Assembly (NCBI GenBank): GCA_951406725.2 | Contig: OX597842.1 | Location: forward strand, 806,001 to 870,000 | From: Octopus vulgaris | Taxonomy: Eukaryota | DNA length: 64,000 bases | Direction: 5' to 3' | Part shown: piece by piece, positions 15,262-61,024 of the stretch | Layout of the letters: each line of letters begins with the position of its first letter | Numbering within the stretch: the first letter of the stretch is position 1 | Notes under the pieces: model-generated | What the model saw: the letters and a program-made list of their open reading frames with translations, nothing else | Databases searched by the model: none | What the model was told of the DNA's origin: nothing | Position numbers and translations under genes: made by a program

Positions 15262-15480
15262 AAGGTGGTGAGCTGGCAGAATCGTTAGCATGGCTGAAAT
15301 GCTAGGTGGTATGTCGCCTGTCGTTACATTCTGAGTTCAAATTCCGCTGAGGCCGACTTTGCCTTTCATCCTTTTGGGGTCGATAAATTGAGTACCAGTG
15401 AGACACTGGAGTCGATGTAATTGACTAGTCCCCTCCCCTCAAAATTTCAAGGCGTATTGCCTTCAGTAGAAAGGATTATG
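15262..15480 (+). mobile_element. tRNA-headed SINE family C monomer (diverged tail)
   Basis: ggtgagctggcagaatcgttagca...gagttcaaattccg...gactttgcctttcatccttttggggtcgataaattgagtaccag, the same head and core as the 58.2-60.8 kb array. Confidence 0.8.
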
Positions 15481-21489: not shown

Positions 21490-22350
21490 TGTTGCTCTTG
21501 CTTAACCCCAGGTCAGTCCTGATCCAGTAGACCTATGATCAAAGAAGACCCAGCTGTGACCATCCCATCTTTTATTCAGCCATAGTGTACCTAGGATTAA
21601 ATTATCTAATGTATAGTATAGTAATTAGTATTAGTGGCAATAGTTGTTGTTGGTTAACCCCAGGTCAGTCCTGACTGCACAAGCCTATGATCAAAGGCTT
21701 TCCAGCTGTGGCCATCCCATCATTTATTCAGCCATAGTGTATCTAGGACTACATCATCTAATGTGCAGTATAGTAGTTAGTATCAGTGGTGTGTCTAGAT
21801 CCAGATAGGCTTATGATCAAAGACGTTCCATTTGTGACAATCCCATCTATTATTCAGACATAGTGTATCTAGGACTCCATTATCTAATGTTCAGTATAGT
21901 AGTTAGTATTAGTGGTGTGTCTAGATCCAGATAGGCTTATGATCAAAGACGTTCCAGCTGTGACCATCCCATCTATTATTCAGACATAGTGTATCTAGGA
22001 CTACATTATCTAATGTTCAGTATAGTAGTTAGTATTAGTGGTGTGTCTAGATCCAGATAGGCTTATGATCAAAGAGCCGTGACTATCCCATCTTTTATTC
22101 AGGCATAGTGTATCTAGGACTACATCATCTAATGTGCAGTATAGCAGTTAGTGGCTGTGGTTGTTTAACCCCCGGTTAGTCCTGACTGAACAAGCCTATG
22201 ATCAAAGGCTTTCCAGCTGTGATCACCCCATCTATTATTCAGACATAGTGTATCTAGGACTACATCATCAAATGTGCAGAATAGTAGTTAGTGGCTGTAG
22301 TTGATGTTTAATCTCAAGGTCAGTCATAATGGAACAGATTTGTGATCAAA
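21490..22350. repeat. ~126-150 bp tandem repeat, about 7 units
   Basis: 'tatgatcaaag...gtgaccatcccatct..attcag.catagtgtatctaggactaca' anchors at 21534, 21686, 21812, 21938, 22064, 22197 and 22341. Confidence 0.9.
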
Positions 22351-23101: not shown

Positions 23102-24205
23102 ATGTTTATCGTCAGCATGGAAAATTCGTTTAACCGAAACCTGGGTAGCAAATCCACGTCAGAAACACGGACTAGCTGAGGCAAGCGCCATGCAACCCCA
23201 AATTTCCAACCCAGAAATTTTCCCCTTACTATCACAAATAACACTAAGAACAATTCAAAGGCCACAAAAAACTGTATCTGGTTCGTAATACCTTTTGGAA
23301 AACAAATTAAATCGAACCTTCCCTTACAGTTCCGTGAAGCCGTTGCTAGGAACTTTCCCAGAAATTCTAGATATCATTCTATTATCAATTCCCACAAGGT
23401 CAGAATAGCTTTCTCTAACACTAGGAATCTTTCACAAATTATATCTTCCCACAATACCAAGCTGCTAAACAAAGATTCTTCACCCGGGAGTTCCAACACT
23501 AATCTTGCTAATTCCAACCCATCATACAATCATAATAATAGGAATAGTATTAATAGTAACAGCATTGGTAGCAGCGAAAGTGTTAACAATGATAATATTA
23601 ATAATAGTATTAGTCGTGTTAATAACAATGGTAGTGTTGATGGTAACAACAATAACGGTATTATTGTCGGTGGTATTACTGGTTGTAATACCATTAATAA
23701 TACTAATAATAATAGAAATAGTGTAGTTGTTAGCGCTAATAATAATAGTAACAACAATCATAACAATAAAAACTTTGTTTCGATCTCGGAGGACAACCCT
23801 AACAGAATTAAATTTTTGTCTAGTAATTCTAAGATTAAGAATTCTATTTACCAGTGTAGAATTTCTTCCGGTACCGATGTCTTCTTCTATATAGGAGCGT
23901 CCACTTCCCAGTTATCCAAGAGAATTTCAAACCACTATTCAACATTCAGGGATAGTAAAAAATGGCATAGTACAGGGCTAAGTAAATTAGTTTGGCGTCT
24001 TAAAGACAACAATATAATTTTCAAGTTAAATTGGTTCATACAGTCTGTATCCTTTCCTTTTGATAAGGGCAGGAGATTTTGTAACATTTGTAACTCTGAA
24101 CTCTTCCATATTCTTCTCTCTAAGGTTCCCCTAGTAAACACACTCATAGAAAAATCGTACAAATGTAAACACTGGCAGAAACACACTTTCTACTCATATA
24201 AATGA
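23102..24205 (+). pseudogene. PLE protein: post-RT/thumb-like segment + Asn-rich linker + GIY-YIG endonuclease, one in-frame TGA
   Basis: Frame is open from 23180 to 24205: CIWFVIPFGKQIKSNL..NFPRNSRYHSIINSHKVRIAFSNTRNLSQIISSHNTKLLN..SIYQCRI..FYIGASTSQLSKRISNHYSTFR..STGLSKLVWRLK..CNICNSE..KCKH. In-frame ATG at 23102, TGA at 23177-23179. Confidence 0.8.
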
Positions 24206-35483: not shown

Positions 35484-36309
35484 GCCATCTTAACATTCTG
35501 AGTTCAAATTCTGCCAAAGTTGACTTTGCCCGTCATCCTATTGCAGTCAATAAAATAAGCACCAGTTGAGCCCTAGGGGTCGATGTGATTGACTTACCCC
35601 CTCCCTTGAACTTGTTGGTCATGTGCCAACATTTGAAACCCACCTTACACTGGCCTGGAACAGTTAGGTGCCAGGAAGTACTCAATATTTGTACACAGAG
35701 TGGAATATTATTTACCCACTCAAGCTCATATCTGAACCCGGAACCCTGTGATTGGTAAGCAAGCTACTTACCACACAGCCACTCCTGCACCTTTATATAT
35801 GTAATACATATATAAATTATGTGGGACCCATGGAAACTCCACTGAATGAAAAAGATTAAGAGAAGCTATTTAAGAGAGAAAAGATGATATGCATTTTTAT
35901 TTTGCATACATTGTGTTTGTGGTAATGGTGGTGGTGGTATTGGCTGAGGTGGAGCGGTTGGGAGAGGGGAGAATGTGGGTGAGAAGAATGGAAGGAAGGA
36001 AGAGCAAGAAAAGTGGGGCAGGGGTGGGTGCTGGGAGGGGAGGAGGGAAGTGTATAAGAGTATGAAAGGAACGAAAAGCGAATGAGAAAAAAAGAAAGAA
36101 AGAGAGGAAGAAGGTAAGGAAGGAAGGAAGGAAAGAAGGAGAGAAAGAAGAGAAAGGTATAAGGAATGAATGAGCAAGGAAGACTTAAGGAATGGAAATT
36201 CATTCATTCAGATATATAGATACAAATATATATACATACATAACATATACACACATGCATATGAACATATATATACATGTATATATATATAGCTGCATAC
36301 ACAAATGCA

Positions 36310-53025: not shown

Positions 53026-53413
53026 TTTCTTTATTTCCCACAAGGGGCTAAACGTAGAGGCGACAAACAAGGACAGACAAAGGGATTAAGTCGATTACAT
53101 TGACCCCAGTGTGTAACTGGTACTTATTTAATCGACCCTGAAAGGATGAAAGGCAAAGTTGACCTCAGCAGAATTTGAACTCAGAACATAATGTATTTCT
53201 TTACTGCCCACAAGGGGCTAAACATAGAGGGGACAAACAAGGACAGACAAAGGGATTAAGTCAATTACATTCACCCCAGTGCGTAACTGGTACTTAATTT
53301 ATCGACCCCGAAAGGATGAAAGGCAAAGTCGACCTCGGCGGAATTTGAACTCAGAACGTAATGGCAGACGAAATACCGCTAAGCATTTCGGCCAGCTTGC
53401 TAACATTTCTGCT
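53026..53413 (-). mobile_element. SINE C head + two tandem bodies
   Basis: Reverse complement of the 184-bp array unit occurs twice, with the head at 53370-53413. Confidence 0.85.
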
Positions 53414-53549
53414 AACATGCCTGGTCATTCATTATTATCAACTTGTTTGGAAACAGGTGAGAATAGGCCACCAGAACGTTATCAAGCCATAGAAAATTTG
53501 CTACAGCAAATTCCATCTCATGCAAGGAAGAACCGAAAAAAAAAATGGA

Positions 53550-54344: not shown

Positions 54345-54810
54345 TTCATCATTGTCATCACCATCATCATCACCATCGTCGTTGTCATCATCATCATCAT
54401 CATCATTGTTATCATCATTGTCATCATCATCATCATCATCACTATCGTCGTCATCATCATCATCATCACCATCGTCGTTGTCATCATCATCATCATTGTT
54501 GTCATCATCATCATCTTTATTATCATCATCATCATCATCACTATCGTCGTTGCCATCATCATCATCATCCTCATCATCACTATCGTCGTTGCCATCATCA
54601 TCATCACCATTGTCGTTGTCAACATCATCATCATTGTTATCACCATCATCATCATCACTATCGTCATTGTCATCATCATCACTATCGTCATTGTCATCAT
54701 CATCATCACCATCATCGTTATCATCATCATCATCATCATCATCATCATAATCGTCATTGTCATCATCGTTATCACGGCCATCATTATTGTCATCATTATC
54801 CTCATCATAA
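54345..54810. repeat. (CAT)n microsatellite
   Basis: Direct inspection. Confidence 0.93.
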
Positions 54811-55490
54811 TTAGTGAATGCTGCCATAATCCTTGCCTTCAGTTCAGCTTTGATGTTACAAGGAGTTTTGTTGGTCTCACCCTTAACTGCACCCCTCAAA
54901 TAATAATCAAGGGGGTTGCAGTCTGGGGAGTTAGGTGGCCACAGAAATTGTCTGACTGCCATGACTGGGTTCTCCTGCTTGTGTGACATGGTGCAGAGCC
55001 CTGTTGCCAAACATAGGGTCTTCCAGCAGCTACCCTCTTGACCCACGGCAGTGCTATCTGCCTGATAAGAAACTCAGAAACACCCATGTCCTTAGCGACA
55101 GACCTGATTGACTTGGAGGGATAATAGTCAACCATGGTTGGATCTCACCAACAAATTTAGGAGTTCTCTTCCTATCAGAGGGAGTTCACCGAGCTGCTCT
55201 ACCTTCGTAATCCCCATTAAACTCATCCAACTCTTTTCAAATCCATTGCATTGTCCCCAGATTGACGCTCAAACACTCTCAAATGTTCGTATTAGAGCGT
55301 CTAGTTCAAATACCAAACAGTACAGCATATCGCTTCCAAATTTCTGGTGGAGTGAATTGCTTCATGGTGCTGGTTTTCTCACAGACAGTGCCCAACTGAC
55401 CCTACTATACTGTGTAGTTGACAAAACCAAAAACAAACAATGCCATGATACAAGAACACTGTTGACAGTGACTTTGAAGTTTTGGCCACA
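54811..55490 (-). pseudogene. Tc1/mariner transposase relic (internally deleted, frameshifted)
   Basis: KSIRSVAKDMGVSEFLIRQI (HTH), PWVKRVAAGRPYVWQQGSAPCHTS (QQD.AP.H motif) and WPPNSPDCNPLDYYL. Confidence 0.85.
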
Positions 55491-55645: not shown

Positions 55646-55823
55646 TCCAAACAAGAAAACACAAAAAAAACACAACGTGAGGACATGAAACAAATATAGT
55701 ATTATTGGACGCTCAGAAAGAAGGAAAGAAGGAGGGTTTAATGTTTCAGCCCTTCTGTGTTTAGCCCGTGTGGGTAGTAAAGAAATATATATATATATAT
55801 GTGTTTCCATGTGTGTATTTGTG

Positions 55824-57850: not shown

Positions 57851-58201
57851 AAATGACATCTAAATGGTTAAATAAGGAACACATTGGATATTATAGTTCA
57901 AGATTTTTGCTAGAGATTGTTTTGGGTGCACTAGGAATCCCTGGGTAGACTGGGTAGATTAAATAATACCATTTACTATTGCATTATTTAAATTCTCTGT
58001 CAGAAGAATTTCTGATAGGAAATTCCTTCCATGTCTATCTAAAATGTGAAACTTTGTAATTCCTATTAGAAAATGAAACATGTGTAATGGTGATTATCAT
58101 AATACCAAGAAATTTCCAATTTCTTAAACTATCAGTTTAAACTATCGGATGTGCTTTTAACATTCCACTGGCAAGAGTGCCAATCAGGCGGTATTGTCAT
58201 T

Positions 58202-60828
58202 GGCGGCGAGCTGGCAGAAACGTTAGCACGCCGGGTGAAATGCTTAGCGGTATTTCGTCTGCGTTATTGTGAGTTCAAATTCCGCCGAGGTCGACTTTGC
58301 CTTTCATCCTTTCGGGGTCGATAAATTAAGTACCAGTTACGCACTGGGGTCGATGTAATCGACTTAATACCTATGTCTGTCCTTGTTTGTCCGCTCTGTG
58401 TTTAGCCCCTTGTGGGTAGTAAAGAAATACGTATTTCGTCTGCCGTTATGTTCTGAGTTCAAATTCCGCCGAGGTCGACTTTGCCTTTCATCCTTTCGGG
58501 GTCGATAAATTAAGTACCAGTTACGCACTGGGGTCGATGTAATCGACTTAATACCTATGTCTGTCCTTGTTTGTCCGCTCTGTGTTTAGCCCCTTGTGGG
58601 TAGTAAAGAAATACGTATTTCGTCTGCCGTTATGTTCTGAGTTCAAATTCCGCCGAGGTCGACTTTGCCTTTCATCCTTTCGGGGTCGATAAATTAAGTA
58701 CCAGTTACGCACTGGGGTCGATGTAATCGACTTAATACCTATGGTCTGTCCTTGTTTGTCCGCTCTGTGTTTAGCCCCTTGTGGGTAGTAAAGAAATACG
58801 TATTTCGTCTGCCGTTATGTTCTGAGTTCAAATTCCGCCGAGGTCGACTTTGCCTTTCATCCTTTCGGGGTCGATAAATTAAGTACCAGTTACGCACTGG
58901 GGTCGATGTAATCGACTTAATACCTATGTCTGTCCTTGTTTGTCCGCTCTGTGTTTAGCCCCTTGTGGGTAGTAAAGAAATACGTATTTCGTCTGCCGTT
59001 ATGTTCTGAGTTCAAATTCCGCCGAGGTCGACTTTGCCTTTCATCCTTTCGGGGTCGATAAATTAAGTACCAGTTACGCACTGGGGTCGATGTAATCGAC
59101 TTAATACCTATGTCTGTCCTTGTTTGTCCGCTCTGTGTTTAGCCCCTTGTGGGTAGTAAAGAAATACGTATTTCGTCTGCCGTTATGTTCTGAGTTCAAA
59201 TTCCGCCGAGGTCGACTTTGCCTTTCATCCTTTCGGGGTCGATAAATTAAGTACCAGTTACGCACTGGGGTCGATGTAATCGACTTAATACCTATGTCTG
59301 TCCTTGTTTGTCCGCTCTGTGTTTAGCCCCTTGTGGGTAGTAAAGAAATACGTATTTCGTCTGCCGTTATGTTCTGAGTTCAAATTCCGCCGAGGTCGAC
59401 TTTGCCTTTCATCCTTTCGGGGTCGATAAATTAAGTACCAGTTACGCACTGGGGTCGATGTAATCGACTTAATACCTATGTCTGTCCTTGTTTGTCCGCT
59501 CTGTGTTTAGCCCCTTGTGGGTAGTAAAGAAATACGTATTTCGTCTGCCGTTATGTTCTGAGTTCAAATTCCGCCGAGGTCGACTTTGCCTTTCATCCTT
59601 TCGGGGTCGATAAATTAAGTACCAGTTACGCACTGGGGTCGATGTAATCGACTTAATACCTATGTCTGTCCTTGTTTGTCCGCTCTGTGTTTAGCCCCTT
59701 GTGGGTAGTAAAGAAATACGTATTTCGTCTGCCGTTATGTTCTGAGTTCAAATTCCGCCGAGGTCGACTTTGCCTTTCATCCTTTCGGGGTCGATAAATT
59801 AAGTACCAGTTACGCACTGGGGTCGATGTAATCGACTTAATACCTATGTCTGTCCTTGTTTGTCCGCTCTGTGTTTAGCCCCTTGTGGGTAGTAAAGAAA
59901 TACGTATTTCGTCTGCCGTTATGTTCTGAGTTCAAATTCCGCCGAGGTCGACTTTGCCTTTCATCCTTTCGGGGTCGATAAATTAAGTACCAGTTACGCA
60001 CTGGGGTCGATGTAATCGACTTAATACCTATGTCTGTCCTTGTTTGTCCGCTCTGTGTTTAGCCCCTTGTGGGTAGTAAAGAAATACGTATTTCGTCTGC
60101 CGTTATGTTCTGAGTTCAAATTCCGCCGAGGTCGACTTTGCCTTTCATCCTTTCGGGGTCGATAAATTAAGTACCAGTTACGCACTGGGGTCGATGTAAT
60201 CGACTTAATACCTATGTCTGTCCTTGTTTGTCCGCTCTGTGTTTAGCCCCTTGTGGGTAGTAAAGAAATACGTATTTCGTCTGCCGTTATGTTCTGAGTT
60301 CAAATTCCGCCGAGGTCGACTTTGCCTTTCATCCTTTCGGGGTCGATAAATTAAGTACCAGTTACGCACTGGGGTCGATGTAATCGACTTAATACCTATG
60401 TCTGTCCTTGTTTGTCCGCTCTGTGTTTAGCCCCTTGTGGGTAGTAAAGAAATACGTATTTCGTCTGCCGTTATGTTCTGAGTTCAAATTCCGCCGAGGT
60501 CGACTTTGCCTTTCATCCTTTCGGGGTCGATAAATTAAGTACCAGTTACGCACTGGGGTCGATGTAATCGACTTAATACCTATGTCTGTCCTTGCTTGTC
60601 CACTCTGTGTTTAGCTCCTTGTAGGTAGTAAAGAAATAGGTATTTCATCTGTCTGTACTTTCTGAGTTCAAATTCCGCCGAGGTCGACTTTGCCTTCCAT
60701 CCTTTCGGGGTCGATAAATTAAGTACCAGTTACGCACTGGGGTCGATGTAATCGACTTAATACCTATGTCTGTCCTTGTTTGTCCCCTCTGTGTTTAGCC
60801 CCTTGTGGGTAGTAAAGAAATACGTATT
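58202..60828 (+). repeat. SINE C concatemer: one tRNA-like head + 14 tandem 184-bp units
   Basis: 'gagttcaaattccgccgagg' at 58271, 58455, 58639, 58824, 59008 ... 60480, 60664. GTATTGTCATTGGC flanks both ends (58191, 60824). Confidence 0.95.
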
Positions 60829-61024
60829 GTCATTGGCCATGTCAGTGATTTTGATTTGATTTCACTTGCCTCAAAAGGTTTTCGCAAGCAAAGTTCATTG
60901 TCCAATGAATGAGGGGTACTCATAAGTGGGCTGGTTACACCCACTGGCATAGGCCATGGGCCATGGTCTCACTTGGCTTGTCAGGTCTTCTCAAGTACAG
61001 CATATCTCCAACATCACTTGAGAA

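Follow-up and report, generated by a model that had tools for sequence, protein, structure and literature searches.

The window, by which we mean the whole 64,000-nt stretch of Octopus vulgaris DNA analysed here, contains an array formed by the 45-nt head and 14 bodies of a short interspersed element (SINE), enclosed by one perfect 14-bp target-site duplication (TSD; Table 1). An earlier note, made from the letters of the window, had described one head followed by 14 units in a single TSD, and this organization was confirmed when the array was read unit by unit. The window has exactly two copies of the TSD, GTATTGTCATTGGC, one at each end of the array, and their match cannot be extended; the final GGC of the 5' copy overlaps the usual 5' leader of the SINE family. 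All 14 units begin with GTATTTC. Units 2 and 4 to 12 are identical and 184 nt long, and unit 3 measures 185 nt through one extra G, whereas unit 13 displays four substitutions, confined to the final 45 nt, and has G as its junction base, and unit 14 displays eight substitutions. The earlier note had recognized the near-identity of the internal units, the extra G and the divergence of the last two units; it had overlooked unit 1, which is shorter and deviates at its 5' end.

Table 1. Features of the SINE array and of the repeat that it interrupts, with positions in the window.
Feature	Position	Strand	Remarks
Host LINE 3'UTR fragment, left part	58145..58190	-	joined to the right flank in other copies
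5' TSD copy, 14 bp	58191..58204	+	site reads G|GTATTG, matching the GGTA target of the family
SINE head, 45 nt	58205..58249	+	A-box-like motif at ~58212-58223
Unit 1, 181 nt	58250..58430	+	young subfamily start (14del, 23G) and 2-nt deletion; B-box-like motif 58271-58283
Units 2-12, 11 copies of one unit	58431..60455	+	no substitutions; extra G in unit 3; putative hybrid of unit 13 5' part and unit 1 3' part
Unit 13	60456..60639	+	equals units 2-12 over columns 1-139; four rare substitutions 3'; G-type junction
Unit 14	60640..60823	+	older-type start, private changes; terminal C not supplied by the target site
3' TSD copy, 14 bp	60824..60837	+	
Host LINE 3'UTR fragment, right part	60838..61011	-	90-94% identical to other copies

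The complete SINE monomer is 229 nt long. As previously proposed, a B-box-like motif is present in every body and the A-box-like motif is located in the head; neither ARAGORN nor Rfam returned a tRNA or Rfam match for the head. The terminal units carry rare sequence features: the 2-nt deletion of unit 1 occurs a single time genome-wide, and the exact 28-mer at the start of unit 14 was found once in the genome, with 24 further matches allowing one mismatch. The joining of the SINE 3' end to GTATTT, also pointed out in the earlier note, is indeed shared with multimers at other loci, but 12 of the 13 junctions in this array end in C rather than in the usual G.

The two flanks of the array are contiguous, without any gap, in 14 of the 14 other copies of the host repeat that were examined, and these copies adjoin reverse transcriptase (RT)-coding sequence upstream (RVT_1, E 4.7e-19, with a weak PHD/C1-like insert). 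The array therefore interrupts the 3'UTR fragment of a minus-strand LINE, presumably of the RTE clade, and the earlier claim that the insertion splits an older LINE fragment stands.

Further relatives of this SINE are found in the window. An older dimer, in which the second body joins without its initial ~15 bases, is located at 53026-53430 (-). Two old-type copies of the SINE superfamily, at 15262-15480 and 35496-35596, have the head and the first 118 bases in common with it, differ in their 3' part and lie in ATT-rich surroundings. A lone 34-nt SINE tail at 55754-55787, followed by (TA)n, is probably a 5'-truncated insertion. We assume that the older subfamily resembles the octopus tRNA-derived SINEs OK, OR1 and OR2 (Ohshima and Okada 1994). 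A tandem repeat of about 4.8 copies of a 126-bp unit (21491-22292) is unrelated to the SINE, and Tc1/mariner-like transposase fragments were recognized by eye at 54800-55073 (-) and at locus L219. The window also contains a 341-codon open frame (23180-24205, +) with an Asn-rich middle and a C-terminus that we take to be like that of a Penelope-type GIY-YIG endonuclease.

The array belongs to a very large class. Exact 16-mers of the SINE tail occur 143,952 times genome-wide and exact tail-to-body junctions 52,829 times in the G-type and 540 times in the C-type form (controls 0 to 25), a junction-to-tail ratio of about one third that is rough because the counted patterns differ. Multimers at other loci thus have the common junction, a check that the earlier note had proposed. 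Multimers accounted for 13 of the 38 headed elements present in an unselected 400 kb. The first 100 G-type junctions on contig C1 corresponded to 78 elements, 57 with two bodies, 14 with three, five with four, one with five and one with six, and about 40% of these junction-bearing elements end in an old-type body.

Searching the genome DNA with an eight-unit query, we found arrays of 20, at least 19, 17, 12 and 12 units; these were drawn from 40 scored out of 2,070 candidates and the number of arrays is a lower bound. In eight of 11 other long arrays, identical units are found among diverged ones with periods of 2, 3, 5 or 9 units, the nine-unit period being that of L220. Several loci display particular arrangements. 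At L224 (G000:C4:19472600-19472950), two bodies are preceded by seven copies of the 55-bp head-plus-TSD unit that a nested insertion leaves. The 7-mer at L021 (G000:C9:93334629-93338049) has a 196-bp unit with a tripled GAAATA tail at each junction, and at L183 (G000:C31:11843193-11847618) opposite-orientation copies are nested at the antisense GGTAC site, the nested structure having subsequently been repeated as a larger tandem unit. With regard to subtelomeric enrichment, a trait of SINE-derived satellites, the window lies 0.86 Mb from the start of contig C29, and long arrays are found elsewhere at many positions. The term 'rolling SINEs' has been used for tandem SINE units. All stages are observed within one genome: nested intermediates, insertions of one head and two to six bodies with their own TSD, and arrays of 7 to 20 units with block duplications. 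The locus at 58191..60837 is a young, unusually uniform member of its class and is not special in itself.

We then analyzed the target sites in a sample of 108 elements, from which 48 without a TSD of at least 10 bp and two simple-repeat ones were left out. Flush TSDs started with GGT in 21 of 38 cases. The trinucleotide NGT directly follows the element end in 30 of 33 members of the young subfamily, to which the array at 58191..60837 belongs. The remaining class, in which many targets start with AGA or TAT, has NGT in 14 of 53 cases (p 2e-9), and a third, intermediate class in 10 of 22. The target has changed from TATA/AGAA to GGTA between subfamilies. Copies end in a GAAATA tail followed by the target, and the start of the body, GGTATTT, itself matches the GGT target. 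Exact nested matches with the order head-TSD-head were found 138 times (control 0). At 29 nested loci, the TSD and the downstream body had a non-standard base in common in 18 cases, while five were uninformative, four did not share a base and two were without the junction. We conclude from these nested matches with host-specific TSDs that self-insertion into GGTATTT makes the tail-to-body junction. Another 1,174 insertions were found at the antisense GGTAC site of other copies. The spacer between two heads recurs at several loci (L042/L043, L051 and three more of the head-TSD-head matches), and at L051 a TSD-like repeat surrounds the entire head-head-body-body structure, double-headed copies seeming to be mobilized as such.

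Only three of the 78 elements keep an outer head (one detected by script, two by eye), and a TSD of at least 9 bp borders 47 of 89 all-young multimers, as compared to 32 of 55 monomers. Most multimers were therefore inserted as multimers, and the rarity of outer heads implies that, if they go back to nested copies, most of them must descend from few nested sources, a requirement that weighs against this origin. Non-flush junctions indicate where the RNA ends. Their extra bases resemble the start of the next unit in 11 of 20 cases, comprising three single bases (one of them the C of the array at 58191..60837, absent from its target), two possible TSD mutations and six junctions carrying 2-4 bases absent from the target; the other nine are mostly AG or TA tail variants. 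Since the extra bases read like the next unit, the SINE RNA likely ends within that unit and pairs with the target, in keeping with the match between the SINE 3' end and an internal GTATTT pointed out in the earlier note. TATTT is described as a Pol III terminator of the Dip and Ves SINEs (PMC8466645). In the octopus SINE it also lies before the B-box, so that such a terminator would have to be leaky.

The same observations could be accounted for if dimers and trimers arose mostly by template jumps, in which a cDNA that ends at GGTATTT anneals to the 3' terminus of a second SINE RNA; the growth of long arrays would still take place at the DNA level. RNA 3' ends that likely reach into GGTATT, the scarcity of outer heads, the dominance of a single fixed junction and the frequent old-type last body would all agree with such jumps, and a jump between two RNAs would yield the same product as read-through. 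However, the nested intermediates carry host-specific TSDs and insertion alone suffices to create the junction. Moreover, in 26 of 39 young-old hybrids the divergence of the old-type body exceeds that of the first young one (p 0.025), as expected for an aged host, a bias that differences between subfamilies could also cause. We consider template jumping as the main source of dimers and trimers rather unlikely, though worth retaining. An origin of both units of a dimer from the same template was tried separately: units shared a rare variant in 11 of 40 dimers of a similarity-biased set (null 1.2), in a tract-like rather than whole-unit manner, but this signal was not reproduced in an unselected set, with 2 of 19 (null 1.1, p 0.31), and this origin was set aside.

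The 39 hybrids ending in an old-type body were also examined for seamless insertion into resident copies, whereby the element would retain the head of the host while homology during integration would eliminate the incoming one. These hybrids lie in a TTA-rich context (3.97 triplets, against 4.64 for old and 2.25 for young monomers), few of them have TSDs (12/39) and head column 16 is intermediate (19/39), as such a process would leave them. Their head divergence is nevertheless 0.093, against 0.096 in young and 0.163 in old monomers, and the heads are young-type throughout, even in columns 1-15 (0.044, as in young monomers; 0.077 in old ones). This argues against retention of a host head and fits insertion of one transcript. 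As mobilization through the old-type tail would explain the TTA context equally well, we find seamless insertion improbable.

The sequence of the array suggests how its 11 identical units were formed. The internal repeated unit equals unit 1 over columns 24-184, the rare C junction included, and equals unit 13 over columns 1-139, including 19T, a variant found in 10 of 225 bodies. The most fitting interpretation is that it combines units 1 and 13 as a hybrid whose breakpoint falls within the unit. The simplest ancestor would be a trimer, U1-U2-U3, amplified over the segment that begins within U1 and runs to the equivalent point of U2. Were they all equally old, units 2-12 should carry ~20-30 private changes, and one was seen (P ~6e-8 or less), an expectation which assumes that changes arose at the locus and not in a source outside the assembly. 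The earlier note had offered recent expansion from a dimer as one of two explanations: the expansion is what fits best, while the precursor appears to have been a trimer. Among trimers elsewhere, the middle unit was a hybrid in the expected direction in 8 of 12 cases (two exact), and in only 2 of 5 unselected ones. Like the dimer results, this speaks against a single course of events for all multimers.

The other explanation offered in the earlier note is rolling or repeated template-jump reverse transcription. A 14-mer made in a single event, with the reverse transcriptase rolling or slipping repeatedly on one RNA or on a 184-nt circle, would agree with 11 identical units inside a perfect TSD. 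The ends of the body are moreover complementary over 7 nt and paired in the predicted fold, albeit this fold is no better than those of shuffled sequences (z -0.21), so that a special circle-forming structure of the unit finds no support and was discarded. Units 1, 13 and 14 carry private changes, while units 2-12 have none, and the break is best placed within the unit instead of at the junction, where rolling or repeated jumps would place it. No dimers with units 0-1 bases apart were found among 40, the minimum among 19 unselected ones being eight differences, and other arrays contain higher-order blocks. The block-repeat patterns of the long arrays, with their multi-unit periods or the sevenfold repeat at L224, cannot be produced by jumps at the junction. 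We regard writing in one event as very improbable for the array at 58191..60837. A retrozyme-like concatemer of equal-aged identical units joined at their RNA ends was likewise rejected given the private terminal changes, and no self-cleaving ribozyme was detected in the unit by Rfam up to E 1 (window 58100-58900).

It is to be noted that the 14-unit copy number at the locus rests on the assembly. Raw reads, sampled at ~3% of each run, gave no contigs bridging flank and array; at both array ends only short repeat-derived contigs were obtained, which neither confirm nor refute the copy number. This result and the perfect internal identity would be compatible with an assembly or polishing artefact affecting unit number or uniformity. 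On the other hand, the array measures 2.6 kb and the assembly covers 2.8 Gb with 227 contigs, other arrays retain distinct, patterned units, and the G-type tail-to-body junction is present in all five raw reads of run X24 that cross position 58430, so the junction class is real. An artefact therefore appears highly unlikely.

We also searched for the LINE that could mobilize this SINE. Over 40-51 nt, the SINE tail is only 72-79% identical to the 3' terminus of LINEs that have an upstream zf-RVT ORF. A LINE with such a C-terminus, putatively of the L1/Tx1 type, and with a tail in common with the SINE, is the likely kind of partner judging from this similarity. The four upstream LINE extensions were all 5'-truncated and yielded only the zf-RVT C-terminus. 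Loci L196-L215 belong to a zf-RVT LINE family with a SINE-like tail, often ending in (TATC)n, and the copies examined are 5'-truncated. In 1.38 Mb selected for their SINE content, the LINE tail preceded none of 512 SINE body starts. The element is short and interspersed, is present in at least 100 copies, generates TSDs and has this LINE-like 3' tail, as SINEs do; for tRNA-derived SINEs, the criterion that has been used is a head with A and B boxes that matches a tRNA at 60% identity or more over 60 nt (PMC3531059).

Each step of the process that we propose has a precedent in other elements. For squamate SINE-derived satellites (sSats), unequal recombination and insertion at the same locus have been invoked (Vassetzky et al. 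2023, PMC10702118). Like the octopus arrays, sSats have units shorter than the SINE, a longer terminal unit, few to many copies, greater uniformity in longer arrays and alternating di- or trimeric patterns. To count as an sSat, an array needs four or more middle units that fall short of the SINE length and an extended terminal unit, and the array at 58191..60837 has 12 middle 184-nt units and a head on the first one. In contrast, the squamate units come from various parts of the SINE and true dimeric SINEs were not found there, whereas in the octopus one fixed junction occurs more than 50,000 times, the multimer as a whole is often bordered by its own TSD, and nested intermediates explain the junction. 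Among B2, Dip and Ves SINEs, tandems represent 40% of B2 and 49% of Dip, with up to eight units, and the large tandem share and TATTT-type terminators recall the octopus family; these are described as whole SINEs arranged head to tail, with their origin left open, whereas the octopus units after the first are headless (PMC8466645).

McGurk and Barbash (2018, PMC5932611) described transposable element tandems by double insertion, where site preference leads to dimers and then to expansion, up to ~16 copies for hobo. Tail-to-internal junctions of non-LTR elements are common to both systems, but the internal junctions in that data vary with 5' truncation, whereas in the octopus the preferred site lies inside the element and the multimer is apparently re-mobilized as one transcript. 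The crocodilian SINEU-3, partnered with the Tx1-clade LINE Tx1-Mar, is a target-preferring SINE forming tandems by sequential insertion; its target is another transposon and its tandem copies sandwich the TSD, unlike the octopus SINE, which targets its own head-body boundary (Kojima 2015, PMC4494074). In the literature searched, we found neither a head+(body)n family nor a SINE preferring its own head-body boundary with one headless junction at such a scale, though Repbase or Dfam entries and subscription papers may describe one, and the text of the 2026 octopus repeat annotation does not contain the words 'multimer' or 'dimer' (PMC13282606).

Altogether, the 14-mer was probably generated when a three-body SINE transcript inserted and a hybrid unit was later duplicated in tandem at the DNA level. 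The first step is directly observed: young copies insert at GGT-starting sites, and one of these, GGTATTT, immediately follows the head of the SINE itself, giving head-TSD-head-body-body. In a second step, the inner head would be transcribed through its tail into the host body, with a leaky stop at the TATTT of a following unit; such RNAs, whose 3' ends would pair with GGTAT targets, would give rise to head+(body)n insertions with their own TSD. In a third step, suggested by the pattern of variants along the array, the adjacent direct repeats would undergo unequal exchange or slippage, and the stretch between a point within unit 1 and the corresponding point of the old unit 2 would have been copied 11 more times, recently. 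The insertion-type junction at the SINE's own GGTATTT, the nested intermediates, the trimer precursor and the tens of thousands of multimers were absent from the earlier note, whose picture of a SINE turning into a satellite is a fair description.

More tentatively, and with less than even confidence, we suggest that seven bases of the SINE serve both as a landing site for its own copies and as a leaky Pol III stop, so that, once one copy has nested in another, the RNA end would steer insertions or template jumps to GGTAT sites, including those of its own relatives. Headless multimers making up about one third of copies, this RNA-guided feedback would lead from retrotransposition to the birth of satellites. 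The change from TATA/AGAA to GGTA targets, together with the next-unit bases at junctions, would offer a natural way to test if site choice depends on the SINE RNA 3' end as well as on the LINE endonuclease. The passage from dispersed element to satellite is usually argued from a few snapshots. Here its stages are present in numbers within one genome, making the rates of dimer formation and of expansion measurable. If the proposed feedback is true, it would have seeded direct repeats by the tens of thousands, ready for expansion and in some cases growing into satellites, in a process that can be read stepwise in a single octopus genome.
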